Assembly: GCA_964365185.1 (NCBI GenBank)
Contig: CAYIOP010000001.1
Coordinates: 34,675 to 98,674, forward strand
Reading direction: 5' to 3'
Source of the DNA: an uncultured Candidatus Saccharibacteria bacterium
GTDB lineage: Bacteria; Patescibacteriota; Minisyncoccia; UBA6257; 2-01-FULL-56-20
DNA: 64,000 bases
A program made the translations under genes and the position numbers. The notes beneath the pieces are model-generated. The model ran no database searches and was not told where the DNA came from. It saw only the letters and a program-made list of their open reading frames with translations. This document shows, piece by piece, positions 24,317 to 46,881 of the stretch (the stretch's first letter is position 1; every line of letters starts with the position of its first letter).

Positions 24317-26107
24317 TTATTGAATTTCACCTTGATAGCATTCGGAACAGTAAATTATTTCAGGATCATTGTTTGAGTAGCTGGTCATAAATTTATTTTG
24401 ACACTTTGTTTCGCCATGAAGATGGGCGGTTCGATTTTCGTATATTATCTCTCCAGTTGAGTTTTCTGAAGTTCTTCCGCCACACATACAAAATTTTTCA
24501 GATAGATTATAGCGTTCTCGGCCGTTATTTCTGATATGGCGTCGGCATTCGGGGCAAAGTCGCGGAAGGGCGACGTTAATCATTCGGTAGAACTCCAGTT
24601 CCTTGGGAACGATTTTGAAAGCTCTTTTGCATTGGTGGGCACAATCTCCTCTATGAGAGCAGTTGATAATTTTTTCTAATATTTTGTCGTCCGTGTTTTT
24701 TATGTTATCCGGCAGATCTTCGGGATTTATGGTGTTCGCGTAGGTTTTTAGTTCCGCGTCTCGCCACCAAAGTTTTTGTTTTTGAGCTTTTTCTTTGGTG
24801 ATCGGGAAATAGCGCTGAGCTAAGGAGTTATTGTAGGCGCAGGTTGAAAATTCCGGCGGGAAGAATTCGCCGTACTTGTAAATGTGGCCAAGTTCGTTGA
24901 TGTAGGGTGTTTGCTTCATTTGTTCTATAATCTTCGGCACTATTTTTTCATATTCTTCCTTCGTGTATTGTTTATTTAGAATGCAGTACTTTTTTTTTCT
25001 TAACCCAACGCAGCCGAAAAGATGTTCGCATGATTGGCAAGTATCGCAGTATTGTAAATCTAAGCTTTCTCTGGCGCCGTTGGTGAATCTGATGTTTTGG
25101 GAATTAAACGCGCTGCTGGCGTAGATAAGCTCGCATTTTTCGCCTCCAGCGAAGACGTCGTAGCTGTCTTTGATTCTTCGGCCGCAGATTAGGAGATATT
25201 TGCTGTTTTCCGCGCCGTCTCTAACTTCGAAGCTATGCTGACAGTTTTTGGCGTTTTCGATGTCGTTGCCGGTGCAACCAACGGTGTTTTTTTCCGCCAT
25301 ATACTTTCTTGGGATTTTCGATTTAAGTTTTTCGAATTCTTTTTTGGCATCTTTTAAAGTTTTATGACTACCGAGATTTAGCTCCGACATTTTTTTTTCA
25401 TATTCTTTTTTGGAGTAGGGTTGATTGAAAATATGATATTGTTTGTTTCGTAAACCGACGCAGCCGAAACAGTTGGAGCAATTTCGGCAGTCGTAGAGAA
25501 ATTTTGAATCTAAACATTCATTGCATTGTTCAGAAAATAAAAGATTGAAACAGCGAGTACAAGAACAGGATTCATACATGTTTTCGCAAAAAATTAATAT
25601 TGAGACGTCAATGCATTTGCGGCTTACGGCAGGCGTGTCTGAATACATGCAGTCTTCAGAGAGATAGGCTCCGGAGACGAGGTAACAATTTTTTGAGTTT
25701 GAGGCCCAGGTGCAGTAATCGCAGTTTATTGAGTTAATTGAACGTACATTCGCTAAAGGAACAGAGTTTAAGAGTTTTAGAAATTGCTCGAAAAAGGGCT
25801 TTGAAAAATCGTAGTCGAGGCCATATTCGGTCGGATCCCAGGCATCGGACCACCAATAGTCGGAATCGTATATTTTGAGTCCTCTTTCCGAAGGATATCT
25901 AGAAATGAGTTCTTCGCTGTGGCCGGGTGCCTGGCATTTGACGCGGAAGAGCGCACCTTCATTCGACCAAATGAGTTTATGCATCATTCGGCACTTAGGA
26001 CAAAAAGTCGGCGGTGGGACTTTAATTTTTTCGTAGAAAGCGAAGTCATCGGGTTCGATGGTGAAAGTTGATTTGCAGTTTTGGCAAATTCGCGAATCTT
26101 GAGTCAT
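24317..26107 (-). CDS. Cys-rich zinc-ribbon family protein (tandem array member 2)
   Basis: MTQDSRICQNCKSTFTIEPDDFAFYEKIKVPPPTFCPKCR at the N-terminus. Internal CFGCVGLRNKQYHIFNQPYSKKEY and CEHLFGCVGLRKKKYCILNKQYTKEEY, and a C-terminal CPECR...IIYCSECYQGEIQ. Confidence 0.6.
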   Translation of the reverse strand: MTQDSRICQNCKSTFTIEPDDFAFYEKIKVPPPTFCPKCRMMHKLIWSNEGALFRVKCQAPGHSEELISRYPSERGLKIYDSDYWWSDAWDPTEYGLDYDFSKPFFEQFLKLLNSVPLANVRSINSINCDYCTWASNSKNCYLVSGAYLSEDCMYSDTPAVSRKCIDVSILIFCENMYESCSCTRCFNLLFSEQCNECLDSKFLYDCRNCSNCFGCVGLRNKQYHIFNQPYSKKEYEKKMSELNLGSHKTLKDAKKEFEKLKSKIPRKYMAEKNTVGCTGNDIENAKNCQHSFEVRDGAENSKYLLICGRRIKDSYDVFAGGEKCELIYASSAFNSQNIRFTNGARESLDLQYCDTCQSCEHLFGCVGLRKKKYCILNKQYTKEEYEKIVPKIIEQMKQTPYINELGHIYKYGEFFPPEFSTCAYNNSLAQRYFPITKEKAQKQKLWWRDAELKTYANTINPEDLPDNIKNTDDKILEKIINCSHRGDCAHQCKRAFKIVPKELEFYRMINVALPRLCPECRRHIRNNGRERYNLSEKFCMCGGRTSENSTGEIIYENRTAHLHGETKCQNKFMTSYSNNDPEIIYCSECYQGEIQ

Positions 26108-26130
26108 AGATGATTTTTGTTTTTTTGATA

Positions 26131-26162
26131 CTATTCTCTAATTCGCGCGAATTAGAGAATAG
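26131..26162. repeat. 32-nt perfect palindrome between array members 2 and 3
   Basis: ctattctctaattcgc|gcgaattagagaatag, read directly. It is preceded on the + strand by a T-run. Confidence 0.5.
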
Positions 26163-26181
26163 TTGGATAGAAGCGCCTTAA

Positions 26182-27834
26182 TTATGATATTTCGGCTTGA
26201 TAACATTCAACGCAGGAAATTTTTTGAAAAGTAAGTTTGGGTGAATAGTAATGTTCAATCTCTTTTTGGCAATAGACACATTTTCCTTTTTGCGGCTCCA
26301 TCATTAGAGTTAAGGGGTGAAAGCGGTTTAGGGTTCGCCAGTCAAAATGTTGTCTTGGTAGAGGGATTTCATGCTCGCGGTAAAACTGAAGTTCTGACGG
26401 GGCAATATTATAGCTTAATTTGGTTTCTGGACAGATGATGCGTTGTTTAGTAATGTCGTCTTTAACATTATCTATTTTATCCGGTAGGTCTTCCGACCTA
26501 ACTCCAACGTATTCCGGATTTTTAGGTTCTTCCCATTTAGCTCCGAATTTTAAAGCGCCCTCTTTTGTTTCGGGAAACATAATTTGAGCGAGAGAATAGT
26601 TGTATCCAGCATAGGCGGCGCTAAGTGGAAAAAATTTTCCCCACTCCCCTCTTTGCTTCATATCTGTTTCTATCTTTTTCTTTAGCGTTTCGTATTCTTG
26701 TTGGCTATATTGTTTGTTTAAAATGCAATATTTTTTCTTTCTTAATCCCACGCAGCCAAAACAATATTCGCACTCTTCGCAGTTATCCAGATAAGCGCTG
26801 TAGCGACAATAGCCGGTATAGAGATTACAGAAATTTTCATATCCCCATTGGTCCAGGGAACTCCGGGCGCATTTTTCCGATGGGCAGCCCACCGCATCAA
26901 TGAGGTCTTTACCGTCTATTCCCCTTAAAGAATAGCGGCAATTTTCCGATCTTTCCAAAAAATAACAGCTATGGCAGTTTTTGTTTTCCAATAAAAAGTT
27001 GCCGCTGGAATTTGAAATTTGGACATTAAAATGCGCGCGGTGAATCGTGTCTTTTTGAAGATGGCTCCAAAATTCTTTTTTTAGTTTTTCGACAGCGGAA
27101 TAAGAATTGAGTTCAAAACTTTTTATTTTTTTAAAATATTCTTCTTTTGAATAAGGTTGGTTTAAAATATAATATTGTTTATTTCTCAAATTCCAGGACA
27201 TAAAACAGTTTTGACAGTTGCGGCAGTCATAGAGAAAAGCGCCTTCTATACAGTCACGTGAGTTGAAGCAGTGTCGCAGTTTGAATCCCTTAAAACAATA
27301 GAGGCAGTCATAACATTTTTCTAGTTCAAAACAATAAGTTATATCCAGAGAATTTTTCGAGGCGAAAGCCCTGTAGCCATAACTGATATCCTCGATTTTC
27401 CAAGCTGACCTGGTGAGGTAGCAATTTTTTGATTCCCAAACATCGTCGGTCCAGTCACAATTGGTGTTTCTAAGACCGGTTTGATGAGGATGAGGAACTT
27501 TGGCTTGAAGTTCCATTAATTGTTCAATAAAAGGCCGGGAGGCGTCATAATCGCGGCCGTAGGCTAAAGAATCCCAGGCGTCTGAGACAAATTCTTCCCG
27601 TTCGTAGATTGGAAAAGGCACGCTCTCGGGTAAGACGGTAATGAGCCGTTTACCGCTTAGGGCGGAATTGGTGATTCGAAAGCGGCCAAAAATCCAAAAG
27701 GACAAAAGATATTTCCATCGACAGAGTGGGCATTGGTCTGGCGTCGGCAAATCGAATCTACTATAGAATTCTTTGTCGATATCTTCTATTTGAAATTCTT
27801 TTTGGCAGTTTCGGCACGTTTTGTTTTCAGTCAT
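26182..27834 (-). CDS. Cys-rich zinc-ribbon family protein (tandem array member 3)
   Basis: Start placed at M13 (MTENKTCRNCQKEFQIEDIDKEFYSRFDLPTPDQCPLCR) to avoid a 34-nt overlap with the upstream gene. Internal CQNCFMSWNLRNKQYYILNQPYSKEEY and CEYCFGCVGLRKKKYCILNKQYSQQEY, and a C-terminal ISCVECYQAEIS. Confidence 0.55.
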   Translation of the reverse strand: MTENKTCRNCQKEFQIEDIDKEFYSRFDLPTPDQCPLCRWKYLLSFWIFGRFRITNSALSGKRLITVLPESVPFPIYEREEFVSDAWDSLAYGRDYDASRPFIEQLMELQAKVPHPHQTGLRNTNCDWTDDVWESKNCYLTRSAWKIEDISYGYRAFASKNSLDITYCFELEKCYDCLYCFKGFKLRHCFNSRDCIEGAFLYDCRNCQNCFMSWNLRNKQYYILNQPYSKEEYFKKIKSFELNSYSAVEKLKKEFWSHLQKDTIHRAHFNVQISNSSGNFLLENKNCHSCYFLERSENCRYSLRGIDGKDLIDAVGCPSEKCARSSLDQWGYENFCNLYTGYCRYSAYLDNCEECEYCFGCVGLRKKKYCILNKQYSQQEYETLKKKIETDMKQRGEWGKFFPLSAAYAGYNYSLAQIMFPETKEGALKFGAKWEEPKNPEYVGVRSEDLPDKIDNVKDDITKQRIICPETKLSYNIAPSELQFYREHEIPLPRQHFDWRTLNRFHPLTLMMEPQKGKCVYCQKEIEHYYSPKLTFQKISCVECYQAEIS

Positions 27835-27836
27835 AT

Positions 27837-29504
27837 TTAGATAACTTTTTGTTGGTAGCAACTTTCGCAAAAAATAATTTCGGGTTGGTCAGGAGCGAAA
27901 TTTGTTTTAATTGGTTTTTGACAGTTCGCGCAATTGCGATCAAATATTTTAATTGGTCCTCTTCTATTTATCCTAGCTTGGTGGCGACAGTAAAAGCAAT
28001 GCCGCGGGAGAGGTATGGACATGAGTTTATAAAACTGGAATTCAGCTTGAATGATTTTGTAGTTTCGTTTACAAGAAACGCAGGCGAGAATTTCGTCTAT
28101 AATTTTTTCTGAAATTTCGCTAATATCATCTGGAATCTTTTCTGATTTCAGAGTTTCTTTTCCGGTTGTTATTTGAAGATTATCTTCCCAGCGATAACCT
28201 TGGGCAAGGGCTTCGTCTTTAGTGAGCGGCAAGTTGTCTTGCGCAATAGTTTCGTTATAGGCGAAGAGATTAAGAGCTGGTGGGAAGAAGAGTCCATAAT
28301 CCCCCGCCTGAATAAGTTCCTGCTTGATTGTGTTCGTAATTTGCCGATATTCTTTTTCGTCGTAGCGTTTATTTAGAATTGAAAATTTGGAGTTTTTTAT
28401 GCCATCGCAACCGAAACATTCTTGGCTATTACGCGTGGCGAAGCAATAAGCGACATCTTGAGCGTTTTCCACCCACCAAGAGCTGATGACTCTGGCGCTA
28501 TAACCAGTGGCAACTGCTTCCAACAACAATTCGGAGTTGCGGCCATGGCCGATAATGTCGTAGGTGTCTTTTGCTAATTTAACCGAGAAAGAGTAGTTGA
28601 CGTTTTCACAAAAGGCTAATTCAAATGAGGAGCGACAATTTTTTGATTCAAAAATGTAGTCGCCGGTTACAGCCACACTTTTTAGATTGTTGTTTTCGCG
28701 GCGTGGGAATTTAAGAGAAAATTCATCAAAGTTTTTCGCGAATTCTTTTATGGCGCTATAGCTGCCGATAATTGGTTCGACTTTCTTTTTCCACTCTTCT
28801 TTAGAGAGCGGTTCATTTAGAAAATGGTATTTTTTATGGCGAAGATTAACACAACCGAAGCAATTTTGAAGACCGACGCAATTTAAGAGAAATGAGGAAT
28901 CGAGGCATTCGGAAACATTTTGAGACCAAGAGACGCCTTTGCTGTTGTGAATATTTACTCCTTCGTAAATGTTTTCTGATTTATCAATATTGTAGCCGTC
29001 AAAGACATTGCGGCACTGGAGCATTCCGCGAGAATAGGCGCAGTTTTCATTATTGGGTCCGGAGTTGGCGACGAGATAGCAGTCCTTGTTGCCGCCAGCA
29101 AAGTTTTCATACGGACTGTTTACGCTTTTCATTACGTCGCTGCGGTAAAGTGCACATTTAGGAACTGAATGGGTTAATTCTTTGAATTGATCGAAAAAAG
29201 GCCGATTTGAATTATAAACTCGGCCGTAAGAAAAAGAATCCCATTTATCGCTATGCCAGCAATCGGGACAATATACCGTGAAAGTTGAGGAAGGGCTATA
29301 CATTGAAATAATCGGCTCATGGCAGAGATCACAGGAACGATTATATAAAACAAATTCGTTTCGAAATTGGGCCTTTCTTTTAAAGCGGCATTCAGGACAT
29401 AAAATAGGCGCCGGAACGCCCATTTTTTTATAGAAAGTGAAGTCGTCGGGTTCGATGGTGAACCCATTTTTGCAATTCTGACAAATTCTTGAATCTTGGA
29501 TCAT
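27837..29504 (-). CDS. Cys-rich zinc-ribbon family protein (tandem array member 4)
   Basis: MIQDSRICQNCKNGFTIEPDDFTFYKKMGVPAPILCPECRFKRK at the N-terminus. Internal NCFGCVNLRHKKYHFLNEPLSKEEW, and a C-terminal CFYCRHQ...IIFCESCYQQKVI. Confidence 0.6.
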   Translation of the reverse strand: MIQDSRICQNCKNGFTIEPDDFTFYKKMGVPAPILCPECRFKRKAQFRNEFVLYNRSCDLCHEPIISMYSPSSTFTVYCPDCWHSDKWDSFSYGRVYNSNRPFFDQFKELTHSVPKCALYRSDVMKSVNSPYENFAGGNKDCYLVANSGPNNENCAYSRGMLQCRNVFDGYNIDKSENIYEGVNIHNSKGVSWSQNVSECLDSSFLLNCVGLQNCFGCVNLRHKKYHFLNEPLSKEEWKKKVEPIIGSYSAIKEFAKNFDEFSLKFPRRENNNLKSVAVTGDYIFESKNCRSSFELAFCENVNYSFSVKLAKDTYDIIGHGRNSELLLEAVATGYSARVISSWWVENAQDVAYCFATRNSQECFGCDGIKNSKFSILNKRYDEKEYRQITNTIKQELIQAGDYGLFFPPALNLFAYNETIAQDNLPLTKDEALAQGYRWEDNLQITTGKETLKSEKIPDDISEISEKIIDEILACVSCKRNYKIIQAEFQFYKLMSIPLPRHCFYCRHQARINRRGPIKIFDRNCANCQKPIKTNFAPDQPEIIFCESCYQQKVI

Positions 29505-30097: not shown

Positions 30098-31564
30098 TTA
30101 AATAAGTGGTTCAGGTTCTTTGGTGGCTGGAGGATTTGGTTCTTCGGAGTCAGCGGTTCGGGGCTTACCTTCAATAATGGCTTTTTCCTGAGCGCTTCTA
30201 AAAATCGTGGCTTCTTCTTCAGTAATTAGTTTTTTAGCGGCGCCAGCTGGGATAGTGTATTTAGTCCTCGATAATTCCGTAATTTTTTCTTTAAATGTTT
30301 CATGAGTGGGAGGCAAAACCTTTAACGTTTCGGCCGAGAAAGGATCATAGGTTTCACCGTCAATGGTCATTTTGATATAGAATTCCTGCATACCAAGATT
30401 AATCATATCTTTGACTTTAAAAACCGGATCCATTTCGGGTTCGAGTTTGACTGCGTCTTCGCCGCCGACGCGGAAAATAATGATAGTGCCGGTATTGCCT
30501 AAAACAGCTGCCTGAACTCGGGGAATTAACTGAGCGGCGTATTGATGGGCGACAGTAAGGCATAAACCATATTTGCGGGCTTCAGAGAGAATGTTTTCAA
30601 AGGTTTCAGTGACTAAGTTATGAAACTCGTCAACGTAAAGATAGAAATCCGTTCGGGATTCTTCGGGCATGCCAGCTCGGGCCATTCCAGCTTGCTTGAT
30701 TTTAGTAATAAACATCGCACCCAAAAAACTTGAGTTTTCTTCGCCTAGTCGTCCTTTACAGAGATTAATAAAGAGAATTTTCTTTTTTCTCATTACTTCT
30801 TCTATATCAATTTTATTTTCTTTTTGACCAAAGATGTTTCGTAGTAATGGGTCGGAGAGAAATTGGCCAAGTTTATTTACTAGTGGAATAATAGCGTCGG
30901 TGTCGAATTTTTCCGACCAATCGGCGAATTCAATGGCCCAAAAACGTTTAACCATATCGTCTTCAATATATTCCACCACTTTCTGACGATAGTTGCGGTC
31001 GGTAAGCATTGAAATCATGCCGCGCATGGTGGCGTGAGGATAGTCGAGAAGAGCCAGACAAGTGAATCTGAAAACGTGTTCTAATCGCGGAGTCCAGTTG
31101 GCGCCAAATTGCTTTTCCATGACTTCAATTAAACCTTGAGTGAGTTGATGTTTGAAGGCCGGATCAACATTGGCTAAGGGATTAAATGAAACTGGATTAT
31201 CCAAATCGGTTGGGTCGATAATAACCACATCTTCAATTCTTTCCTTTGGGATGAATTTCAGGATTTCTTCGATTACATCTCCGTGCGGGTCCATAAGACA
31301 GAGGCCGTGGCCATACGCAACATCTTGTCGAATTAATAATTCCAAAAGTTTGGATTTGCCGACACCGCTTTTGCCGATAATATACATATGTCGGCGACGG
31401 TCTTTTCTTTTGATGCCAAAAATAAATTCCTTTTTTTCAAGCGCGGCCACATAGTTAGTGCGACCGATGAAGGAAATTTCCTTCGGGTCAATACGACCGT
31501 AGATTGGAAGCTCCGGTGGAGGCGGAGCGTATTTGATAATTTGAATTTTTCCGGCTTTACTCAT
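30098..31564 (-). CDS. DUF87-type P-loop NTPase (HerA/TraD/VirD4-like), paralog 2
   Basis: [40 protein letters not shown] and AHQ. The N-terminal 250 aa are about 45% identical to the ATPase at 1102..2922. It has no zinc-ribbon tail. Confidence 0.7.
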   Translation of the reverse strand: MSKAGKIQIIKYAPPPPELPIYGRIDPKEISFIGRTNYVAALEKKEFIFGIKRKDRRRHMYIIGKSGVGKSKLLELLIRQDVAYGHGLCLMDPHGDVIEEILKFIPKERIEDVVIIDPTDLDNPVSFNPLANVDPAFKHQLTQGLIEVMEKQFGANWTPRLEHVFRFTCLALLDYPHATMRGMISMLTDRNYRQKVVEYIEDDMVKRFWAIEFADWSEKFDTDAIIPLVNKLGQFLSDPLLRNIFGQKENKIDIEEVMRKKKILFINLCKGRLGEENSSFLGAMFITKIKQAGMARAGMPEESRTDFYLYVDEFHNLVTETFENILSEARKYGLCLTVAHQYAAQLIPRVQAAVLGNTGTIIIFRVGGEDAVKLEPEMDPVFKVKDMINLGMQEFYIKMTIDGETYDPFSAETLKVLPPTHETFKEKITELSRTKYTIPAGAAKKLITEEEATIFRSAQEKAIIEGKPRTADSEEPNPPATKEPEPLI

Positions 31565-35630: not shown

Positions 35631-35636
35631 GGAGAT

Positions 35637-35667
35637 TAGGTGATAGGTTTTAGGTTTTAGGTGGCAG
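35637..35667. repeat. heptad-periodic (T)AGG repeat between secD and secF
   Basis: tagg tgatagg ttttagg ttttagg tggcagg, with TAG at 35637, 35644, 35651 and 35658. Confidence 0.5.
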
Positions 35668-36913: not shown

Positions 36914-37207
36914 TGAGATTAGGTTTAAGGTGGCAGGTTATGGGTGATAGGTTGCTACGAAAGTTGGAATTTATTAACGATACGATTATAAAGGAAGGCG
37001 CTTAAATTGTAAACTCCTCTGAATAAGAGTTTTGTGAGTAATTTTTTTCTAGAGAGAAAGGTCTAAGTTAGAAAATTATTTATAAAACTTGATCGTTTTA
37101 TTTTTCGAATAGTGCCATTTTTATTTGAGTGGAATGAAATAAAAAAACGGGATGTAAATTTCTTTACATCCCGCAATATAATGAATGTGGTTTGTCGTCC
37201 GTGGGCG

Positions 37208-37762: not shown

Positions 37763-38209
37763 TTACTTGTCTGTGCCGAAGATTCTGGCGTAATTTCCGT
37801 CTATTCCCCAGGGCAATTCTTTTTCTTCTTGTTCCCGAAAAGATCCGTAGAATGGGTAGGTGAAAACTTGGCCATTCGGACGGATTCGACAATTTCTCCA
37901 TCCGTATTTTTCGCGAAATTGAAGCTCGATTGTGCGGTCCACGTTGACTTCGAAATCGAGCGTCCCTATCGGTACATTTACCGTGTCATAAGGACTGATT
38001 CCCATAGGTGTATTGTCTAGGTAGTAGTCGATGGCGTAGCAAAGAGCAGCTGTTTGTTGGCGTTGGAATCGAAGTTCCTTTTTGAAGTGAAAAGCCGCAA
38101 TTGCAGTAACAATAAATGCACCGATTATCACAGCTCCCAGAAAAACAAATAATGAACGCATAAAACCTCCAATTATTAAGTTACATTTGAACAGATTTAA
38201 TTTTAGCAT
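37763..38209 (-). CDS. hypothetical membrane-anchored protein
   Basis: 148 aa with one N-terminal TM helix. No motif recognised. Confidence 0.35.
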   Translation of the reverse strand: MLKLNLFKCNLIIGGFMRSLFVFLGAVIIGAFIVTAIAAFHFKKELRFQRQQTAALCYAIDYYLDNTPMGISPYDTVNVPIGTLDFEVNVDRTIELQFREKYGWRNCRIRPNGQVFTYPFYGSFREQEEKELPWGIDGNYARIFGTDK

Positions 38210-39020
38210 TATAATAATTATTATGTCAAGGATTGGAGCTAGCGATTTGAATTTAAAGAATGGCGAGCGGGCGTTGGTGGTGGTGGCGCATCCGGATGAT
38301 GAGACAATTTGGATGGGTGGGACGATTTTAAAATTTCCGAGGGCGAAGTGGACGATTTTTTCGCTTTGTCGTGGTGATGATAGAGATCGGGCGCCAAAAT
38401 TTAAGCGAGTTTGCCGATTTTTAAGCGCGAAGGGAGTGATTTCGGATTTGGAGGACGAGGAGGTTTTGAGCTTGAAAGAGAGTTTGCCTGAAATACGCTT
38501 ACGTTTGAGAAATTTCTTATTTGCCTCTCAGAACCGCGGTTCAATCCGTTCCAGCGGCGGCTTGTCCACTACCTCTCGACGCGATGAGTCCCGGCTCGGC
38601 GGGACACCAAGCTCATCGCGTCTCCGAGAGTTTCTTCGAGACAAACAAAAAATTTCTCCCCCCCCGATTACATCCCTTCACAAATTCAATGAGAGAGGAG
38701 GAGGGATGGAGTTTGATTATGTTTTTACGCACGGGTATAATGGAGAGTACGGACATCCGCGACACAAAGGTGTGCATCGCGCGGTTGCGGAGATGATTCG
38801 GGCGGGGGAGATCCGGACGAAACATTTTTTTAATTTCAGTTATGAGTTTCTTGAGCGAAAGAATGTTTGTCGGCCTAAAAAGGCGGAATTTTTTTTAGAG
38901 TTATCCCCGACTGTTTTTAAAAAAAAGCAGAAAATTATCAATGAATTCTATGGATTTAGAAAATCGACTTTTGAGTATCGGACTTTATCAAATGTGGAGT
39001 CGTTTAAGTTAATAAAATAG
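38187..39020 (+). CDS. PIG-L/LmbE-family N-acetylglucosaminyl deacetylase with internal low-complexity insertion
   Basis: LVVVAHPDDETIWMGGTIL (PIG-L AHPDDE motif) and a distal HGYNGEYGHPRHKGVH (HxxH zinc motif). A Ser/Arg/Gly-rich stretch of about 55 aa, encoded by a GC-rich segment, lies between them. Confidence 0.5.
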   Translation: MNRFNFSIIIIIMSRIGASDLNLKNGERALVVVAHPDDETIWMGGTILKFPRAKWTIFSLCRGDDRDRAPKFKRVCRFLSAKGVISDLEDEEVLSLKESLPEIRLRLRNFLFASQNRGSIRSSGGLSTTSRRDESRLGGTPSSSRLREFLRDKQKISPPPITSLHKFNERGGGMEFDYVFTHGYNGEYGHPRHKGVHRAVAEMIRAGEIRTKHFFNFSYEFLERKNVCRPKKAEFFLELSPTVFKKKQKIINEFYGFRKSTFEYRTLSNVESFKLIK

Positions 39021-39492: not shown

Positions 39493-40641
39493 ATGAAATC
39501 CGTAATTCTATACGCATATCCGCCGGAGCCGGATGGACTTTCGCAACAGGGTGATATGCTCTATCGGGGACTCAAAGAAATTGGCGAGGAGATACTCCCC
39601 TGCCACCTCTCGAGCGAATTTCAGAAGGAGTGGATTTATAAATTTTTAAAGCCCGACGTGGCCATCGGTGTTGGATTTTGGGGACACACCCAGGATATTA
39701 TTTTGCATCCGCAGAAATTCGGTATTCAGCCAGTGCCGTGGCTACTCGCGGATGGCTGGGTGGCGAATTACCACAAAGAAATCGGCGAGTTGCCACTTGT
39801 ATTTACCACGAGTGATTGGGTGGCTCGAACTTTTGCTCGGGATGGGGTGGATACTAAAAATTTTCAAACGCTCTATATTGGGCTTGATACTGAACTTTTT
39901 AAACCCATTCCACGCAGTGACCCGAGAGTGAAATTGATTCGAGAGATGATTGGAGTACGTGAGGATGAAGTGATGATTATGACTGCTGGAGGCGATGTGA
40001 CTTCTAAAGGCGCGCAGGAGGTTTTTAGGGCCTTAAAAAGAGTGGATGCCGAGTTTAAAAATTGGAAGTATGTTTGTAAAATTTGGGGCGGAGCAAGCGC
40101 GGATGACCACTACGACGACGAGATGGCTTTGATTGAGGAGTTAGGCGAGGAGGCGAAAGAAAAAATAATTTACCTTGAAGGTTCAATGTCTCGTGAGTTT
40201 ATGCCTTTACTTTTAAACGCCTGCGATATTTACGCGGCGCCTTCGCGGCTGGAGGGATTTGGAATGATACAAGTAGAGGCAATGGCGTGTGGTAAGCCAG
40301 TGATTTCAATTGACGAGATGGGGCCAAAGGAGACGATATTGCATGGCGAGACGGGTTTCTTGGCTAAAGTGGCTTCAACTGTGGATTTAACCGAGGAGTG
40401 GGCCTATGTGGGCTGGGGATTTGAGGAGGATCATAAAATTCAGTTTGAAAAACCCAAGACGTTTGCTTATCGGGCTGACGCAGACCAGATTGCGGAGTAT
40501 TTGCTTAAATTACTTACAGATAAAGATTTGAGAGAAAAAATGGGTGCTCGGGCTCGTGAACACGCGGTAGAAAAATTTGAGTACCGAAAAATCGCCAAGC
40601 AGATGACGGATGTGATTAAGGAGAAGTTTAATTTGAACTAG
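39493..40641 (+). CDS. GT4-family glycosyltransferase
   Basis: C-terminal EGFGMIQVEAMACGKPVIS, the GT-B E-x7-E motif region. Confidence 0.7.
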   Translation: MKSVILYAYPPEPDGLSQQGDMLYRGLKEIGEEILPCHLSSEFQKEWIYKFLKPDVAIGVGFWGHTQDIILHPQKFGIQPVPWLLADGWVANYHKEIGELPLVFTTSDWVARTFARDGVDTKNFQTLYIGLDTELFKPIPRSDPRVKLIREMIGVREDEVMIMTAGGDVTSKGAQEVFRALKRVDAEFKNWKYVCKIWGGASADDHYDDEMALIEELGEEAKEKIIYLEGSMSREFMPLLLNACDIYAAPSRLEGFGMIQVEAMACGKPVISIDEMGPKETILHGETGFLAKVASTVDLTEEWAYVGWGFEEDHKIQFEKPKTFAYRADADQIAEYLLKLLTDKDLREKMGARAREHAVEKFEYRKIAKQMTDVIKEKFNLN

Positions 40642-40662
40642 GATTCTAATTGGAAAATTTTT

Positions 40663-41673
40663 ATGGATAAAGGAATTTTTACTCAGCTTCCCGGAAAAAT
40701 AGTGGAATTAGATTCTCGATTTAAATATGTAATGGCGCTGGCTTTGAATTCTCGCTCGAATTATATGAATGGAATTATTCGATGTATTACTAAACGAGAT
40801 GGAGATTTGCAAATTAAGGGATACGCAGATCGAAGTGTTTTGTATCAAGTTAGGGGTGATTCTCTTAAAAATTTCTATATAGAAAACAAATTGAACATTA
40901 ATGGAGAAGAAGAATTAATTAATCAATTTAGTGGTGATGATTGGGATTTTATGGGTTTTGAAGACCCTGATATTTGGATTGATGATATGGATGATTTTAC
41001 GCATGTTTATTTTACAATTTCGCTCTGGAATAAAAAGCAGCGGCATACGTTCTGTCATTTGGGACATGCCGAAGGCGCAAATTTAGATTCATTAGAAATG
41101 ACAGAACCGGTGCTTATTGTTGATGAAAAAATTCGGAGGGCCAAGGAACCCTCGATTGCTCCGGTGAATAAAGGAGGGTTTCGATATAATTTAATCGAAT
41201 CTCGGTCAGATAAAGGACAATTTTCCTATTCTACAGTAAGGGTTGCAATTACTGAAAATATGGGCGAACCCTGGAAATTTGGTGAGACGGTATTGCATCC
41301 GGCCGAAAATAATATTCCGTGGATTGGCGGACACGCTTCACCTGGACCTCTACTGTCTCAAAATTTTATAGATGTTGGAGATGGAAAGTGTTTAGGTTTT
41401 TTAAATGGGCGAGAAGTTAATCAAAAAATTGGAGAAAATGTGCGGTATGGAACATTCTCTATTGGCCTTTTCATATATGACTACGAGAATGGAAAAATTG
41501 ATTGGGTCTCATCTAAACCTTTTATTCAGGATAGTGAGGCGAAAACTATAACTTTTGCCAGCCAATTTGTTCAAACTGGTGAGAATGACGGAATTTTATA
41601 CGCCCACGTTGATGATTCTTTTGTTCGGGCTTATGAAATTAGAGCAAATTTAATTAAACCTCTGTTGATTTAA
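40663..41673 (+). CDS. hypothetical protein, possible beta-propeller glycosidase-like (weak)
   Basis: 336 aa with an acidic DWDFMGFEDPDIWIDD stretch reminiscent of GH32/43/130-type propellers. It is flanked by 51-nt direct repeats derived from the GT4 3' end. Confidence 0.25.
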   Translation: MDKGIFTQLPGKIVELDSRFKYVMALALNSRSNYMNGIIRCITKRDGDLQIKGYADRSVLYQVRGDSLKNFYIENKLNINGEEELINQFSGDDWDFMGFEDPDIWIDDMDDFTHVYFTISLWNKKQRHTFCHLGHAEGANLDSLEMTEPVLIVDEKIRRAKEPSIAPVNKGGFRYNLIESRSDKGQFSYSTVRVAITENMGEPWKFGETVLHPAENNIPWIGGHASPGPLLSQNFIDVGDGKCLGFLNGREVNQKIGENVRYGTFSIGLFIYDYENGKIDWVSSKPFIQDSEAKTITFASQFVQTGENDGILYAHVDDSFVRAYEIRANLIKPLLI

Positions 41674-41680
41674 CTTGATT

Positions 41681-41731
41681 ATCGCCAAACAAATGGCGGA
41701 TAAGATTAAGGAGAAGTTTAATTTGAACTAG
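41681..41731 (+). repeat. 51-nt duplicate of the 3' end of the GT4 gene (direct repeat partner of 40591..40641)
   Basis: atcgccaaacaaatggcggataagattaaggagaagtttaatttgaactag versus atcgccaagcagatgacggatgtgattaaggagaagtttaatttgaactag. The last 30 nt are identical, and the copy encodes ...IKEKFNLN*. Confidence 0.6.
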
Positions 41732-41770
41732 TTTATTTGGTGCATTGGTAATAACTGGAAACGTTCATTT

Positions 41771-41804
41771 TATACACTACTCTGCGATCGTAAAGTAGTG
41801 TATA
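41771..41804. repeat. hairpin repeat copy A (tatacactact-ctgcgatcgtaa-agtagtgtata)
   Basis: 11-bp perfect stem with a loop containing gcgatcg. A near-identical copy lies at 42431..42469. Confidence 0.55.
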
Positions 41805-41828
41805 AATAAAACATCAGTATTAAGTATT

Positions 41829-42419
41829 ATGTTAAAAACTAGAAGTTTGACGTCTAAAATTTTGGAAGTTGTAAGCGAGGGTGTAATCTCAACTTTTGAT
41901 GTTATCGGCGCGATTTTAGAGTCCGGTTACGGCGCTTCTTATGCGAAACTTGATGCTAGTGTTCGACGCTCTGAGGCGAGGCGTCATAATCGTGAATTGG
42001 AGCTTCGCAATAGACAGAGATTTAGTAATTTAATTTCTAAATTGAAACGGGACGGTTTAATTACTGGCGATAAGCGATCTTTAAAGATCACCGAGGCCGG
42101 ACGTAAGAAATTTTTAAAAATTCGGGAAATTGAGCGAAGTAGAGTTATTCACTCTCCTTTTGGATATCAAGCTAAAGTAAGTCGAAATCTTACAATCGTT
42201 ATTTTTGATATCCCGGAGAAGGAAAAGGTTAAAAGAAATTGGCTGCGAGCGGTTTTACTAAATCTCGGTTTTAAATTGCTTCAGAAGAGTGTTTGGATCG
42301 GTCGAGTTATTATTCCTCGGGAGTTTTTGAAAGATCTTCGAAATATGAGAATTTTGGAGTACATTCACATATTTTCTGTATCTCGATCGGGGACAATTGA
42401 AAATGATAAGGATGGATAG
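41829..42419 (+). CDS. hypothetical protein with winged-helix-like N-terminus; C-terminal region loosely Cas2/VapD-like (speculative)
   Basis: 196 aa. RFSNLISKLKRDGLITGDKRSLKITEAGRKKF looks like an HTH wing. TIVIFDIPEKEKVKRNWLRAVLLNLGFKLLQKSVWIG resembles the beta-alpha-beta core of the Cas2 fold. The gene is flanked by hairpin repeats A and B. Confidence 0.3.
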   Translation: MLKTRSLTSKILEVVSEGVISTFDVIGAILESGYGASYAKLDASVRRSEARRHNRELELRNRQRFSNLISKLKRDGLITGDKRSLKITEAGRKKFLKIREIERSRVIHSPFGYQAKVSRNLTIVIFDIPEKEKVKRNWLRAVLLNLGFKLLQKSVWIGRVIIPREFLKDLRNMRILEYIHIFSVSRSGTIENDKDG

Positions 42420-42430
42420 TTTCCCTTATA

Positions 42431-42469
42431 AATATACACTACTATGCGATCGTAGATTGGTGTATATTT
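42431..42469. repeat. hairpin repeat copy B (aatatacac-tactatgcgatcgtagattg-gtgtatatt)
   Basis: Shares tatacactact[c/a]tgcgatcgta with copy A, in direct orientation and 660 nt apart. Confidence 0.55.
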
Positions 42470-42590
42470 ATGATGAAAATGGAAATTGATTTAGATTACT
42501 AATAGCTAAGCAGCAACTGGAATCCGCGGCGCCGTAATAGACCATAAGCCCTCCATTCTTTAGAACTGCTCCTTCGGGGTTTGAGCATTT
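42468..42590 (-). pseudogene. GH130 C-terminal gene fragment (40 codons) duplicating the 3' end of 44849..45823
   Basis: The minus-strand translation KCSNPEGAVLKNGGLMVYYGAADSSCCLAISNLNQFPFSS* matches FPEGAVIKNGKLMVYYGAADSSCCLAIYNFNNFLK*. An in-frame stop lies upstream of the fragment. A 24-nt stretch, tccgcggcgccgtaatagaccat, is identical in the two copies. Confidence 0.55.
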
Positions 42591-42609
42591 CTAGTATCGC
42601 ATCTCCATT

Positions 42610-43056
42610 TTATACTCTCCTATTTTTTAAATACTCAGGAAAAGTTTTTCGTTTATCTTTTTCGGTTTCGTCCGTTTTTTCTTCCAATATTGCCTTCAGA
42701 TATCCAAGTGGATCAGCTGGATCAATGTCACTCACATTAAATTCTTTTACAACCTTAAAATATTCTGGTTTGTACATTTCCGAAGGATGTTGTCTTCGGG
42801 GACCTTCATATATTTCTAGCATCGCATCTCCATTTTCAAAAAATACTAACATTGCAAAATTCTTAAGTTCTTTATCTTCCCCTATCTTAAGATACGCCGG
42901 ATCACGTCCTTGATGGAGGAATATCTCTTTGTTAGCGCTACCTCCCTCGCTATATTTATCTATACTTTTAAAATATTCATAAAGAGTTTCTGGCGTAAAT
43001 TTTTTGCTTTCTGATTCTTTAATTTGTTCCGATTCTTCTGGGTTTTCGTACTTCAT
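42610..43056 (-). CDS. hypothetical acidic protein
   Basis: 148-aa ORF, E/K-rich, with no motif recognised. A 22-nt internal segment (42813-42836) is duplicated just downstream of its stop (42590-42612). Confidence 0.3.
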   Translation of the reverse strand: MKYENPEESEQIKESESKKFTPETLYEYFKSIDKYSEGGSANKEIFLHQGRDPAYLKIGEDKELKNFAMLVFFENGDAMLEIYEGPRRQHPSEMYKPEYFKVVKEFNVSDIDPADPLGYLKAILEEKTDETEKDKRKTFPEYLKNRRV

Positions 43057-43153
43057 GATTATAATTATTTCTGATTATTATTTTTTGTCAATTTTTGTCT
43101 GTTTAGTACTATTTGTAAAACGTACTAACGCGAGAAAATTTGTACGCCAAAAG

Positions 43154-43181
43154 TTGACAAACAGGGGAATTATGCTATAAT
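43154..43181 (+). promoter_or_regulatory. sigma70-type promoter TTGACA-N16-TATAAT with upstream inverted-repeat operator candidate
   Basis: ttgaca at 43154-43159 and tataat at 43176-43181. Upstream, ttagtac-N12-gtactaa forms an inverted repeat at about 43104-43130. Confidence 0.45.
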
Positions 43182-43271
43182 CCCCTTGTTCTTGTCTCTC
43201 TTGTTATTTGATAAGTGAATAGCCGCTGTCTATGGGATAATCCATGGTCAGCGCAGTATTAACCATTTTTT

Positions 43272-44408
43272 TTGGCTATACGCCAAGAAAGGAAGTCCAC
43301 GATGACGGTTTCGACCAACATCGCTAGTTCTGCAAATATCTACTTCGGAGGTGAGTTGGTTCCGACCAACTCAGCTGGAGATATGGTATTTGCGATTGCT
43401 GGGACGCTGAGTAACGAAGTTATCAGTCGTCTGTCCAGGAAACTTTCGCGGAAACCAATGAGTTTCCAAGAACTTATTTATTCTTGTGACTACGAACTAT
43501 TGAGGCACTTGGCGACGGATGTCTATCTGCTTGTGATCCAACCAGGTCATGAAAAGCAATTCACGAATGAGGTAAGGGCTTTGGAATTGTGGAGGCAGGG
43601 CGCCCAGCGAGTACTTCTTATCCGCGGAGGTGCGTTGATTCTGGCAGAAAAAATGTCTGAATACACCCGTCGTAAGATTACGTCAAATTTGCCATCAAAC
43701 CGCATCTTGAAATGCCTTTGTGCTTTCGACGGTGTATCTATTCCAGGTCTGACAGGATTTGATCTTACTTCCGCATTTTCTGCGATTGCACTTGCACTGG
43801 AGCAGGTTGTGGAGGAAAAGGTTAAGGTACTACTCAAACTGGCTATCGTTGACACACTGATCAACGGACGTCGCCTTGAAGACTGCGTACCGATTGCGCT
43901 TCCCGGCCAGACCGCCTATCTCATTGGTGGTCTGTCGACTACCTCGCCCGATTCTCAGTCGTTTATACTAGGAACCAACCTTACTCGCGATGCATTTGAG
44001 CGTCTCTTGGGATTAGTGAATCCGGCGTCGGAGTTTCGTGAGCTAATCGCTGGCATCAAGCCGATTCTTGACCACATCATTACTGACACGTATGCCTTAG
44101 TGCATAATCGTGGAGGTGAGACGAAAGTCAAGGCGGTGGTCCTATGTAGTCATGGTGACCGGAAACTCCTCCTCACTCGCGGAGGCAGTATGCCTATTGT
44201 GAGAGAGGAGAGTGGAGCATTCTTTGTCCTCGACAACTTTGTCGACGAGATGTCCGACCAATACCCAGGTTTCAAACTTGGCGAAGCTTTGTACTCTGTC
44301 CGACAGCAGATCGCCAACGTTATCAGGATAAGAGCTGAGGTGCTCGGCGTGCTTGCTAATGCGTCACAGATGATTTCAACCATTTGGGCCGGAGGTAAGC
44401 AGTCATGA
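43272..44408 (+). CDS. hypothetical protein of GC-rich island (likely true start ATG 43302 with AGGAAG RBS)
   Basis: 378-aa ORF with clearly higher G+C and different codon choice (ctg, cgt, acc) than the flanks. No recognisable motif. Its stop overlaps the next start (ATGA). Confidence 0.45.
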   Translation: MAIRQERKSTMTVSTNIASSANIYFGGELVPTNSAGDMVFAIAGTLSNEVISRLSRKLSRKPMSFQELIYSCDYELLRHLATDVYLLVIQPGHEKQFTNEVRALELWRQGAQRVLLIRGGALILAEKMSEYTRRKITSNLPSNRILKCLCAFDGVSIPGLTGFDLTSAFSAIALALEQVVEEKVKVLLKLAIVDTLINGRRLEDCVPIALPGQTAYLIGGLSTTSPDSQSFILGTNLTRDAFERLLGLVNPASEFRELIAGIKPILDHIITDTYALVHNRGGETKVKAVVLCSHGDRKLLLTRGGSMPIVREESGAFFVLDNFVDEMSDQYPGFKLGEALYSVRQQIANVIRIRAEVLGVLANASQMISTIWAGGKQS

Positions 44409-44692
44409 TGATGGAATACAGAATTATGCTGATTGTTATCTTTATGATGGCATGCCTATGCTTTTTTGGGAGCATTCGACGTCTCGTAAGCACCGACAAA
44501 GAAAAGTACATTACTTTCGGAATCTTCTTCCTGTTTGTGGGGATAGCGTCAGCCATTGCAATTAGCCTCGAAGGGCAATACTATGCCGAAGGGCAATACT
44601 CTACTTTTTCAGGCGTCGACTATTCCATCCAATTCTTCGTGTTGGTTCTAGAGTCTGGATATCTCTTCCATGTCACCAAATGGGGAGAGTAA
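44405..44692 (+). CDS. small membrane protein (95 aa, 2-3 TM) translationally coupled to upstream island gene
   Basis: MMMEYRIMLIVIFMMACLCFFGS...FGIFFLFVGIASAIAISL hydrophobic helices, with an ATGA overlap at 44405-44408. Confidence 0.45.
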   Translation: MMMEYRIMLIVIFMMACLCFFGSIRRLVSTDKEKYITFGIFFLFVGIASAIAISLEGQYYAEGQYSTFSGVDYSIQFFVLVLESGYLFHVTKWGE

Positions 44693-44816
44693 GCAGACCC
44701 GTCTTTCTGAATGACGGATTGATACGTCCTTCATCTGGGATGCTGACTCTTTCCGCCAGCAGTATGAAGCGCTCCTGACGAGACCACAAAAATAGCAATT
44801 TTTCAGAAACCTATAA

Positions 44817-44850
44817 CCGGCTCCGAGACAATGTCTTGGAGCCGCTTTTT
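44817..44850 (+). terminator. Rho-independent terminator of island operon
   Basis: ccggctccgagac-aat-gtcttggagccg followed by cttttt. The T-run overlaps the stop of the convergent GH130 gene. Confidence 0.45.
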
Positions 44851-45823
44851 ACTTTAGAAAATTATTGAAGTTGTAGATAGCTAGACAGCAGCTGGAGTCC
44901 GCGGCGCCGTAATAGACCATTAGCTTTCCATTTTTTATCACCGCGCCTTCTGGAAAAGTGACATTATTTACAATCCCCTTTCTTTCATAAAGTTTTTGAG
45001 GTTCTAGGATTGGTCTTTCAGATTGCCACAAAACTTCTCGTGGATTTTTTAAGTCCAAAAGCGCGGCGTGGATGGGCCACACTTTTTTTCCTATAGCAGG
45101 ACCACAATAAATTAAAAGCCAGCCCTTGCTAGTTTTGATTGGTGGTGCGCCTAGCTCTGGACCGCGCAGAGCGCCGCGGGGAGGCAGGAGCACGGCGTGT
45201 TTATCAAAGTTGGTGAAAATTTTACCCCAATAATTCTTGGGAGGATGGAACAGTTCTTTTGTGTCCTTAAATTCAGTGTAGAGAATAGAGGAGTCCACTT
45301 TGTCGGGATGCCAGGTGAATAACATTCCGATTTTTCCGTTAATTTTCGCTGGGAAAATTGCCGCAGCTTTGGCTCGGACTTGGTCTGGTTTTGGCCCAAT
45401 AAAGCCATGCTTCTGAATTTTCTTAAAATCTTTGGTTGTGGCTAGAGCGATTCCGGGTACTTCCTTTTTGGAATATGCCGGTTTTGACATGGCTGTGTAG
45501 AAAATGTAATAGGTGTCACCGAGTTTGGTTATTCGAGGGTCTTCGCAGCCGAATTGATTCCAGGGGTGATCTGGTTTTATAAGGGGTTTTGCCGAGCGGG
45601 AAAAATTTATGCCATCCTTACTAGTGGCGTAGCCGATGGAAGAAATGTAATTAGTATAACCACCGGCAGGTCTTGGCTTGAATCCGGCTCGAACCGCGCG
45701 ATAGACCATATGGAAAATTCCATTTTCATAGACCACGGATGGATTAAAAACCGAACCGGCTTCCCAAAAGTTTTTGGGGTTGGGTTTTAAAATTGGATTT
45801 CTTGGGTAGCGGATAAGTTTCAT
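44849..45823 (-). CDS. GH130-family glycoside hydrolase/phosphorylase (5-bladed beta-propeller)
   Basis: NPIL.P....WE..SVFNPSVVYENGIFHMVYRAV, GYATSKDG and GCEDPRITKLGDTYYIFYTA are hallmark GH130 motifs. Confidence 0.7.
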   Translation of the reverse strand: MKLIRYPRNPILKPNPKNFWEAGSVFNPSVVYENGIFHMVYRAVRAGFKPRPAGGYTNYISSIGYATSKDGINFSRSAKPLIKPDHPWNQFGCEDPRITKLGDTYYIFYTAMSKPAYSKKEVPGIALATTKDFKKIQKHGFIGPKPDQVRAKAAAIFPAKINGKIGMLFTWHPDKVDSSILYTEFKDTKELFHPPKNYWGKIFTNFDKHAVLLPPRGALRGPELGAPPIKTSKGWLLIYCGPAIGKKVWPIHAALLDLKNPREVLWQSERPILEPQKLYERKGIVNNVTFPEGAVIKNGKLMVYYGAADSSCCLAIYNFNNFLK

Positions 45824-46881
45824 AAACCGGGATTCTGCTTAAGAGTTTCGATAAGTTCAGCTAAATTTACTTTAGCGACCGCAATTAAATGGTCGGCGGC
45901 GCCGTAGTAGATGTAGAGATTATTGTCGAAAATAGCGGTGCCGGTTGGGAAAACAACATTGCTGACATCGCCGACTTTTTCCCAAGATTCATCTGGACCA
46001 AAGAAAGGTTCTTTTAAACGGCCGAGGACTTTTTGGGGATTTTCCAAATCTAAGAGTGCGGCGCTCGCTCGATAGATGCGACCGTGATTGGTTTCTTCAA
46101 CGGAATGAAGCAGAAAAAGCCAGCCATCTTTGGTTTTGATGGGTGGGGCTCCGCCGCCGATGTGGCGGGTTTCAAACCAATATCGGTTTTCTAGCACAAC
46201 AAAATCTGGAAGATGGTTTAAATAATTCACCCAAAAATCTCTAGATTTTAATTGTTTAAAATTATCAAAATAAACAATCTGAATATCCGGCAGAATTCGG
46301 TGTAATAGAGCAAATTTTCCTCCAATTTTTTCGGGAAATAAAACCGCATCCTTTTCCCAAAGCAGGATGTCCTTGCCGCCGAATTCTTCGTAGAAGGATT
46401 CAAACATCGCGTATTGGTCTTTGAGATGCTCGGCACGCAGGATTTCGCCGACTTCATCATAAGTTAATTGGGGACTGATAATTCCATCTTTTTTCCAGTT
46501 TTTTAAGTCCGCGCTTGTGGCAAGCGCGACAACCGCGTTTTTGCCGTCGTGGGCCGTATACGTCATATAGAACGTGTTTTCGATTTTGACGATACGCGGA
46601 TCTTCTACTCCCATTACTTCATACATCGCCTCGCGTTCAATCAGAGGTTTATCGAGGCGTTCGATGACCTCGGTTGGGCCTTTGAGTTTGGCATAGCCGA
46701 TTCTGGATTTAGTATTTTCATTTGTGTCCATCTTATCTTGACCGATGGCCCGATAAAAAATATGGACGTATTCGTCGTCTTGATAAACAGCTGGATTTAA
46801 AACCGCTTTATTTTCAAAAATATTTTCCGTGGGTTTTAGAATTGGTCCGAGTTTTTCAACTTTCATTGTAAATTTTGACAA
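45820..46881 (-). CDS. GH130-family glycoside hydrolase/phosphorylase, paralog
   Basis: NPAVYQDDEYVHIFYRAIG and GVEDPRIVKIENTFYMTYTAHDG. The gene has 4-nt overlaps with both neighbours. Confidence 0.7.
   Translation of the reverse strand: MSKFTMKVEKLGPILKPTENIFENKAVLNPAVYQDDEYVHIFYRAIGQDKMDTNENTKSRIGYAKLKGPTEVIERLDKPLIEREAMYEVMGVEDPRIVKIENTFYMTYTAHDGKNAVVALATSADLKNWKKDGIISPQLTYDEVGEILRAEHLKDQYAMFESFYEEFGGKDILLWEKDAVLFPEKIGGKFALLHRILPDIQIVYFDNFKQLKSRDFWVNYLNHLPDFVVLENRYWFETRHIGGGAPPIKTKDGWLFLLHSVEETNHGRIYRASAALLDLENPQKVLGRLKEPFFGPDESWEKVGDVSNVVFPTGTAIFDNNLYIYYGAADHLIAVAKVNLAELIETLKQNPGL

Follow-up and report, generated by a model that had tools for sequence, protein, structure and literature searches.

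The closest described relatives of the arrangement reported here come from systems in which the end of a conserved gene is displaced by incoming DNA. In the model proposed for the C-terminal regions of rhs genes, a circle that bears new DNA and part of the conserved gene integrates by a single homologous crossover, and the old gene end is displaced downstream (Jackson et al., 2009; PMC2935791). For the displacement of effector-immunity modules of the type VI secretion system (T6SS) in Vibrio cholerae, homology-facilitated illegitimate recombination was proposed (Kirchberger et al., 2017; PMC5361080), a process that passages of this paper and of another one (PMC3240628) cite in connection with natural transformation. 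Here, we analyse a locus of comparable layout in a stretch of 64,000 nucleotides (nt), hereafter the window, from an uncultured Candidatus Saccharibacteria bacterium. In this locus, a gene encoding a GT4 glycosyltransferase is followed by an open reading frame (ORF) of 336 codons, ORF336, and then by a second, untranslated copy of the GT4 3' end; a second pair of gene ends, belonging to a GH130 gene, is found in the same intergenic spacer. The footprint is a clear and ordinary case of gene gain by recombination, of a kind that is already known. In the reading that we prefer, and to which we attach a probability of roughly 55%, recombination anchored in a conserved gene would on two occasions have brought in cargo that now separates this gene from its old 3' end.

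The locus shares several features with the rhs and T6SS systems. In all of them, an intact gene is followed by new DNA and then by a dissociated direct-repeat fragment of the conserved part of the gene, the content of the site varies between relatives, and the cargo differs in base composition. By analogy, the rhs displacement model would produce exactly the footprint seen here. At both gene ends of our locus, the cargo is followed by a dissociated 3'-end copy without the 5' region, and it is absent from, or different in, relatives. The anchor genes have, however, not acquired a new and different C-terminal end. In the rhs and T6SS systems, what arrives is a new and different C-terminal toxin tip together with an immunity gene, and the displaced pieces are long and reusable, whereas in the present case the old end hardly differs from the new one (46 of 51 nt the same for GT4) and the displaced pieces measure only 51 and about 110 nt. 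Moreover, in contrast to rhs, contact-dependent inhibition (CDI) and T6SS loci, our locus has ordinary glycan enzymes as anchors and entire separate genes as cargo.

Homology-facilitated illegitimate recombination requires no recombinase: homology anchors the incoming DNA on one side, and the joint on the other side is non-homologous. Such events during natural transformation were reportedly described in 2002 by de Vries and Wackernagel and by Prudhomme and colleagues. The short duplications at the distal junctions of our locus and the presence of ComEC in the window would be in keeping with this process. Nevertheless, the known experimental events of this type mostly delete recipient DNA beside the anchor, whereas here a part of the anchor has been duplicated.

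Two duplicated gene ends in one spacer

The GT4 gene (39493-40641, plus strand) encodes a protein of 382 amino acids (Pfam Glycos_transf_1, E = 4e-27) and is the last gene of a conserved PIG-L-NUDIX-GT4 operon. A repeat search of the whole window recovered a 51-nt direct repeat at its end. The first copy, called a (40591-40641, plus strand), is the true end of GT4, comprising the functional last 16 codons and the TAG stop codon. The second copy, called a-prime (41681-41731, plus strand), starts 1090 nt after the start of the first; it is a displaced and untranslated GT4 3' end, non-coding in its present context, which would translate as IAKQMADKIKEKFNLN*. An earlier note on this DNA had reported the two repeats at these positions, and both the search and a direct comparison of the copies bear this out. 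The details needed some revision: 46 of the 51 nt are the same, one more than had been counted, and the mismatches, at repeat positions 9, 12, 16, 22 and 23, leave an identical tail of 28 nt, not of 30. The functional and displaced GT4 ends differ at two of 16 residues. The edges of the repeat are abrupt, as the likeness starts at its first base and stops exactly at the TAG stop codon. Even when up to three mismatches were allowed, the 28-nt tail was found at only two sites in the window, both in the repeat copies, and none of 100 shuffled sequences contained a match.

ORF336 (40663-41673, plus strand) is intact and, as had been proposed from the sequence, it is the only gene bracketed by the two copies. 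It starts 21 nt past the GT4 stop codon with no terminator in between, and copy 2 begins 7 nt past its own stop codon. The distal junction is formed by the seven bases CTTGATT (41674-41680, plus strand), in which the last six coding bases of ORF336 can be read a second time (TTGATT TAA C TTGATT). The junction strings of the locus are GAACTAGTTTATTTGGTGC and GAACTAGGATTCTAATTGG. This arrangement is not an assembly artefact, because it is present at 99.99-100% identity in two independent assemblies (L001 and L002) of replicate samples from one Hainich groundwater well, and because the repeat copies differ from each other, unlike the product of a collapsed or duplicated assembly.

A second relic, d-prime (42468-42578, minus strand), lies about 750 bases beyond a-prime in mirror-image orientation. 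It was recovered by the same search as part of a 97-nt direct repeat (42482-42578 against 44857-44953) with 75 of 97 nt identical. Its partner, d (44857-44953), is the 3' end of an intact GH130a gene (44849-45823, minus strand; Pfam Glyco_hydro_130, E = 3e-46). The relic consists of the last 32 alignable codons of GH130a type (PEGAVLKNGGLMVYYGAADSSCCLAISNLNQF), a short divergent tail and a stop codon, and it agrees with the GH130a end at 27 of 32 amino acids (tblastn, E = 5e-14); the functional and displaced ends differ at the other 5 residues and in the short tail. When GH130 queries were run against 41700-44848, no upstream continuation of d-prime was found. The spacer contains two gene-end relics only, a-prime and d-prime.

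The spacer is enclosed by convergent operons, with PIG-L-NUDIX-GT4 on the left and GH130c-GT737-ORF130-GDE-GH130b-GH130a on the right. Read from the left, GT4 with its end a is followed by ORF336, a-prime, palindrome 1, a PaaX/Cas2-like gene, palindrome 2 and d-prime; the right part then continues with ORF148, ORF378 and ORF95, a terminator hairpin, and the intact GH130a gene that carries the functional end d. Thus, a-prime and d-prime face each other across a compact unit, with a strong hairpin after each gene end. The core of this unit is a gene for a PaaX-like protein with a winged helix and a Cas2-like domain (41829-42419, plus strand; Pfam PaaX_M, E = 8e-13, with weak matches to Cas2). 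Palindrome 1 (41769-41806), identified by the repeat search and RNA folding, forms a strong hairpin that probably terminates the GT4(-ORF336) transcript. Palindrome 2 (42420-42479) is a near copy of it and abuts the stop codon of the GH130 relic. The near-identical stretches that flank the PaaX/Cas2-like gene (41769-41811 and 42420-42479) share the core TATACACTACTNTGCGATCGTA and have no counterpart elsewhere in the window; a role as terminators, as operators for the winged-helix protein or as the ends of a small mobile unit is conceivable.

The second cargo block (42610-44692) comprises ORF148 on the minus strand, two divergent promoter-like sites, and ORF378 and ORF95 on the plus strand. None of the three ORFs has a family assignment, and searches in PADLOC, PHROGs and NCBIfam returned nothing for them. 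Between the stop codon of ORF148 and d-prime lies a filler of 25 nt (42587-42611, minus strand) that copies an internal segment of ORF148, located 225 nt away (42812-42836), at 24 of 25 positions; no repeat of this kind arose in 30 shuffles. An 8-nt match, CCCCGAAG, stands directly after both copies of this 25-nt sequence. With the templated 25-nt copy of ORF148 and the TTGATT duplication, the distal junctions do not resemble the products of precise recombination and may be illegitimate.

Gene content in related lineages

The nearest homologues of GT4, sought in 5.8 billion clustered proteins, are 80-86% identical, and syntenic loci could be recovered for six lineages (L003/L004, L005/L006, L007/L008, L009, L172-L174 and L175). 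The gene order sigma70-SecDF-PIG-L-(NUDIX)-GT4 is kept in all six. The earlier note had proposed to look at the gene that follows GT4 in relatives: they have a short variable stretch of DNA (nothing, small ORFs or an MFS transporter) and then a convergent GDE_C or GH130 gene. The PaaX-like gene at 41829 occurs at this place in none of the six lineages, and ORF336, ORF148, ORF378 and ORF95 are likewise absent from all of them. The spacer measures 6.2 kb in the window as compared with 0.25-2.5 kb in the relatives. Because its content differs in every lineage, the spacer is, on sequence comparison, a hotspot. In L172/L173, whose GT4 is 85% identical, GT4 is followed by a small ORF on the same strand and then by a GH130 gene (best match GH130a) and GDE, both convergent, which is the layout outlined by the two relics.

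Conversely, this GT4 family was found in the flanks of none of 160 loci that carry an ORF336 homologue; GT4 and ORF336 are therefore no conserved pair. The composition of the cargo also differs from that of its surroundings, with a G+C content at third codon positions (GC3) of 0.27 for ORF336 and 0.25 for ORF148, against 0.40 ± 0.055 (standard deviation) for the window. The proposal that an insertion has left GT4 with a complete end is thus supported by the relatives, by the missing pairing elsewhere, by the composition, and by the lack of GT4 remnants described below. We detected no remnants of the relatives' spacer ORFs in the window spacer, and sliding-window identity against the six relatives revealed no clear mosaic breakpoint in GT4.

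Copy 2 could also be the last remnant of a second GT4, either a tandem duplicate or a paralogue, the rest of which was replaced by ORF336 or deleted, with a similar origin for the GH130 relic. The distance of 1090 nt between the copies is indeed close to the length of GT4 (1149 nt), and GH130 genes are multi-copy at the locus. Nevertheless, remnants of such a second GT4 in 40663-41680, which had been named as the finding that would speak against an insertion, could be detected neither by tblastn nor by blastn, and the same searches found no other GT4-like sequence in 40642-41900 beyond the 51-nt copy. The interval is occupied by an intact, conserved and unrelated gene, and tandem GT4 genes occur in none of the related loci. 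In addition, this scenario would need two independent and near-complete deletions, each halting just before a terminator. We therefore consider it very improbable.

On the opposite side of the spacer, the minus-strand operon whose last genes occupy 44849-46881 was compared with L172/L173, L003 and L009; it ends with GDE in most relatives and with one GH130 gene in L172. In the window, two extra GH130 paralogues, GH130b and GH130a, stand behind GDE, and GH130a shares only 47% identity with its positional counterpart in L172. No 3'-end duplication matching the addition of GH130b and GH130a behind GDE was found, only similarity at the level of paralogues. On the GT4 side, the PIG-L-type deacetylase (38187-39020) has 277 amino acids as compared with about 200 in relatives; its alignments split near residues 103-171, at a serine/arginine-rich, G+C-rich insert that overlaps alternative ORFs.

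Divergence between the copies and route of gene gain

The last 21 nt of GT4 are highly variable among relatives but identical in both copies of the window. Because this lineage-specific sequence is common to both, copy 2 comes from the bacterium's own lineage or from a very close relative. At all five sites that distinguish a from a-prime, it is the relic that has the state of L172, the only relative with the same GT4 C-terminal length and the same ...LN* ending; the functional copy agrees with other relatives (L003, L005 and L175) at three of these five sites. All five mismatches lie within the first 23 nt of the repeat (P = 0.014 under random placement). This clustering fits a crossover or a conversion tract in the 28-nt identical block, and the overall pattern fits the joining of two slightly different alleles in this block or a later conversion of the block. 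An unchanged relic facing a functional copy with five clustered changes suggests, within the limits of such small numbers, something other than duplication in place followed by decay. For the second pair, the 22 differences between d and d-prime are distributed as 6, 2 and 14 over codon positions 1, 2 and 3, and they amount to 12 synonymous and five non-synonymous codon changes. This suggests that much of the divergence arose while both sequences belonged to working genes.

These patterns bear on an explanation in which the gene ends were duplicated in place, in a single replicative or repair event, by a template switch of the polymerase or by repair of a staggered break. In the template-switch version, synthesis would exit after the GT4 stop codon, copy ORF336 from another molecule and return to a position 51 nt before the one where it had left; the copies would have started out identical and have diverged since. 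The lineage-specific last 21 nt of GT4 in both copies would then simply mean that copy 2 came from the cell's own gene, and the short local duplications at both distal junctions are typical of template switching. Furthermore, at another locus (L064, see below), an ORF336-family gene lies between the two copies of a 74-nt duplication whose target is quite different. It is more difficult to explain in this way why, with L172 as reference, all five differences have accumulated on the constrained functional copy, clustered in 23 nt, and none on the supposedly neutral relic. Similarly, 12 of the 17 changed codons between d and d-prime are synonymous, which is above the expectation for a freely decayed relic. 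Duplication in place thus appears unlikely to us.

In the anchored recombination that we prefer, both gains would have had the same geometry, with cargo arriving behind the body of the last conserved gene but ahead of its previous 3' end plus terminator, and with a second 3'-end copy keeping the anchor gene complete. On the left, the cargo would be ORF336 and the displaced end 41681-41731; on the right, the cargo would be ORF148-ORF378-ORF95 and the displaced end 42468-42578. Recombination would be anchored in the conserved gene, and no site-specific recombinase would be involved. The route taken and the order of the two events are what we infer from there, and two routes can be envisaged. In the first one, a small circle with a gene end and cargo would integrate through one RecA-type crossover in the end common to both molecules; the 28 identical nt are about the shortest stretch that suffices for such an event. 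In the second one, DNA from a related strain would enter by homology-facilitated illegitimate recombination, with homology on the gene side and an illegitimate joint forming upstream of the resident stop codon. In either case, ORF336 would now be co-transcribed with GT4, given the 21-nt gap without terminator, and the transcript would end at the old hairpin (41769-41806).

The entry of foreign DNA by uptake is plausible. The window encodes the ComEC DNA-uptake channel as well as RecR. The comEC gene is followed by a gene for a metallo-beta-lactamase-domain protein (3772-6083), so that this small genome carries DNA-uptake equipment; two genes for TrwB/TraG-like coupling proteins (1102-2922 and 30098-31564) represent DNA-transfer equipment.

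If the reading is correct, the locus offers a base-level record of how the tiny genome of a host-dependent member of the Patescibacteria may gain accessory sugar-metabolism genes without mobile-element machinery. A conserved gene at the end of an operon would serve as a landing pad; its old end would be pushed downstream, and the cargo would inherit the promoter and terminator of the operon. Such relics can be searched for systematically, which could allow gene gains to be dated and counted in uncultivated lineages.

Several observations weigh against this reading. No close relative with a precise empty site was found in the databases, the nearest GT4 having 86% protein identity and about 75% DNA identity. 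Which copy is ancestral is undecided, as the outgroups disagree among themselves at three of the five polarising sites, and the sequences that follow the two copies are only weakly similar to the sequence after the L172 stop codon (8 of 11 positions for copy 2 and 5 of 11 for copy 1, counted by hand). The nearly identical GT4 ends require either a very close donor of the a end or duplication in place. The codon-position test rejects only a neutral divergence of both d/d-prime copies; duplication in place with one constrained copy survives it (P of about 0.1 by our own estimate). Finally, ORF336 homologues adjoin PaaX/Cas2-like genes in several lineages, and the landing of ORF336 beside a resident gene of this type would have to be ascribed to chance or selection.

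This recurrent neighbourhood speaks for an alternative in which the inserted DNA is the central block. An 898-bp fragment (41681-42578) with both gene stubs would have landed between convergent ORF336 and ORF148; its source would be a related strain with GT4 and GH130a both pointing towards a PaaX-like gene. One event would then explain both relics and the position of both junctions 7-31 nt from a stop codon, and the fragment would be a coherent unit of gene end, hairpin, PaaX-like gene, hairpin and gene end. The recipient, however, must already have held ORF336 and the ORF148 block, which are present in no relative, and this implies more events. In such a recipient, about 38 nt devoid of any terminator would have lain between the convergent ORF336 and ORF148. 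Given its homology to both flanking genes, the fragment should replace the spacer and not land inside it, and a non-homologous landing in the same 4-kb locus is improbable. We regard an insertion of the central block as quite unlikely.

Integrase-mediated islands are classically recognised by direct repeats that restore the 3' end of their target gene. As in such islands and their integrase-less derivatives, direct repeats surround the insert at our locus and one of them completes the target gene. The segment could accordingly be viewed as a degenerate site-specific integrative element, a cis-mobilisable remnant whose 51-nt repeats would be attL and attR in the GT4 3' end and whose integrase would be encoded elsewhere. 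Against this, Pfam searches of all 53 ORFs in the window, the segment included, brought up no domain of an integrase, resolvase or transposase, and the content of the segment is a single metabolic gene. The 28-nt core is confined to its two copies within the window, and no core is shared by a/a-prime, d/d-prime and the L064 repeat, whose unrelated sequences leave no room for a common att site. An integrative element thus appears to be an extremely improbable source of the repeats. We also rejected a dif/Xer-like reading of the 28-nt core, as its arms are complementary at only about 6 of 11 positions by eye. A transposon or insertion sequence was discarded as well: there is no transposase, no terminal inverted repeats pair the ends of 40642-41680, and the duplications of 51, about 97 and 74 nt contrast with the fixed lengths of 2-15 bp produced by such elements.

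ORF336 and its family

The ORF336 protein has no match in Pfam (E <= 0.01), NCBIfam, PADLOC or PHROGs, and a profile built from 32 sequences of its family found no relative among the PDB sequences. Neither ORF336 nor ORF378 has relatives in the phage and plasmid collections that were searched. The structure of the ORF336 protein was predicted with high confidence by AlphaFold2 (mean predicted local distance difference test score, pLDDT, of 92.8; predicted template modelling score, pTM, of 0.91). In a Foldseek search of the PDB with this model, ranks 1-28 were all occupied by GH130-type beta-mannoside phosphorylases, synthases or related enzymes, the best match having E = 1e-12, a template modelling (TM) score of about 0.7 and about 15% sequence identity. 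The predicted fold is a five-bladed beta-propeller that can be superposed on the GH130 structures 4udg, 1vkd and 9fj8 (TM score of about 0.7).

ORF336 belongs to a family of more than 1000 homologues that are about 56-64% identical to it and come nearly all from Paceibacteria-type Patescibacteria. Its EDPD motif is invariant and stands where the window's own GH130 genes have EDPR. In 18 of 160 loci (10 of 80 from genomes and 8 of 80 from metagenomes), the homologue is part of a same-strand GH130-ORF336-GH130-GH130 cluster; L010, L015, L030, L031, L033, L048, L061, L066, L077 and L083 are among the loci with such clusters. ORF336 therefore resembles the GH130 beta-mannoside phosphorylases and hydrolases in predicted propeller fold, in the position of the EDPD/EDPR motif and in its GH130 cluster context, whereas it differs from them by the sequence identity of only about 15%, by the lack of a match to Pfam PF04041 and by the lack of a PDB match even when the profile is used. 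From its structural model, it is best read as a divergent GH130-like enzyme. This reading fits the glycan-rich character of the locus, which contains GT4, three GH130 genes, a GDE_C/GH100-like gene and a glycosyltransferase of 737 amino acids. A large and unannotated family with a GH130-like predicted fold, found inside GH130 clusters, is a candidate for a new clade of carbohydrate-active enzymes (CAZymes).

Flanking repeats at other loci of the family

We surveyed 155 other ORF336-family loci for flanking repeats, with 699 genes from the same loci as a control. Among these 155 loci, a long flanking repeat around the ORF336 homologue was detected only in L064 (JAUPWJ010000069.1). There, the homologue (260-1282) is flanked by a 74-nt repeat that is 93% identical between its two copies (180-253 and 1331-1404). 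The components of this repeat are the final 6-7 nt of a tRNA-Asp gene, a terminator hairpin and a promoter-like sequence, and as a result the ORF336 homologue and the next gene are each preceded by this regulatory module. In L170, which carries a relative of this next gene, the hairpin-plus-promoter module is present as a single copy in front of it; we did not accept L170 as a clean empty site for L064, since its upstream neighbour is different. In the control, flanking repeats above 50 bits were found for the window's ORF336 only. Two flanked cases in about 155 ORF336 loci, as against none in about 620, are suggestive but thin. Several shorter candidates were rejected. The flanking matches of 23-27 nt in L115, L117 and L018 are palindromic hairpins repeated in intergenic DNA, the match in L100 looks like paralogous gene ends, and that in L155 is weak.

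Searches with hidden Markov models (HMMs) yielded eight matches to PaaX/Cas2-like genes in the 160 loci, seven of them within 340 nt of the ORF336 homologue. Such neighbours are present in L018 (7043-7399), L102, L115/L117 (4018-4419), L161 (4083-4463), L119 (1787-2164), L096 (1535-2104) and the window (41829-42419). As several of these loci may go back to a common ancestral event, perhaps three to four cases are independent.

Comparable footprints are found three times, as a/a-prime, d/d-prime and the 74-nt repeat of L064. A joint reading of the three would be that promoter-less gene cassettes are recurrently inserted just upstream of terminators in Paceibacteria, independently of recombinases and with duplication of a target of 50-100 nt. 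ORF336-family genes would perhaps be the preferred cargo, and their winged-helix/Cas2-like neighbours would perhaps take part in a staggered insertion. We find this generalization highly doubtful.

Other features of the window

Elsewhere in the window, four tandem paralogous genes of 555-596 amino acids without any Pfam match occupy 22501-29504 (minus strand), and segments of 88-120 nt are repeated among them at 60-77% identity. An Rfam scan of the window identified a single tRNA. Finally, a 31-nt motif (AGATTAGGTTTTAGGTTTTAGGTTATAGGTG and variants) occurs at four sites located at or near gene boundaries (360-390, 12687-12717, 35633-35663 and 36916-36946).

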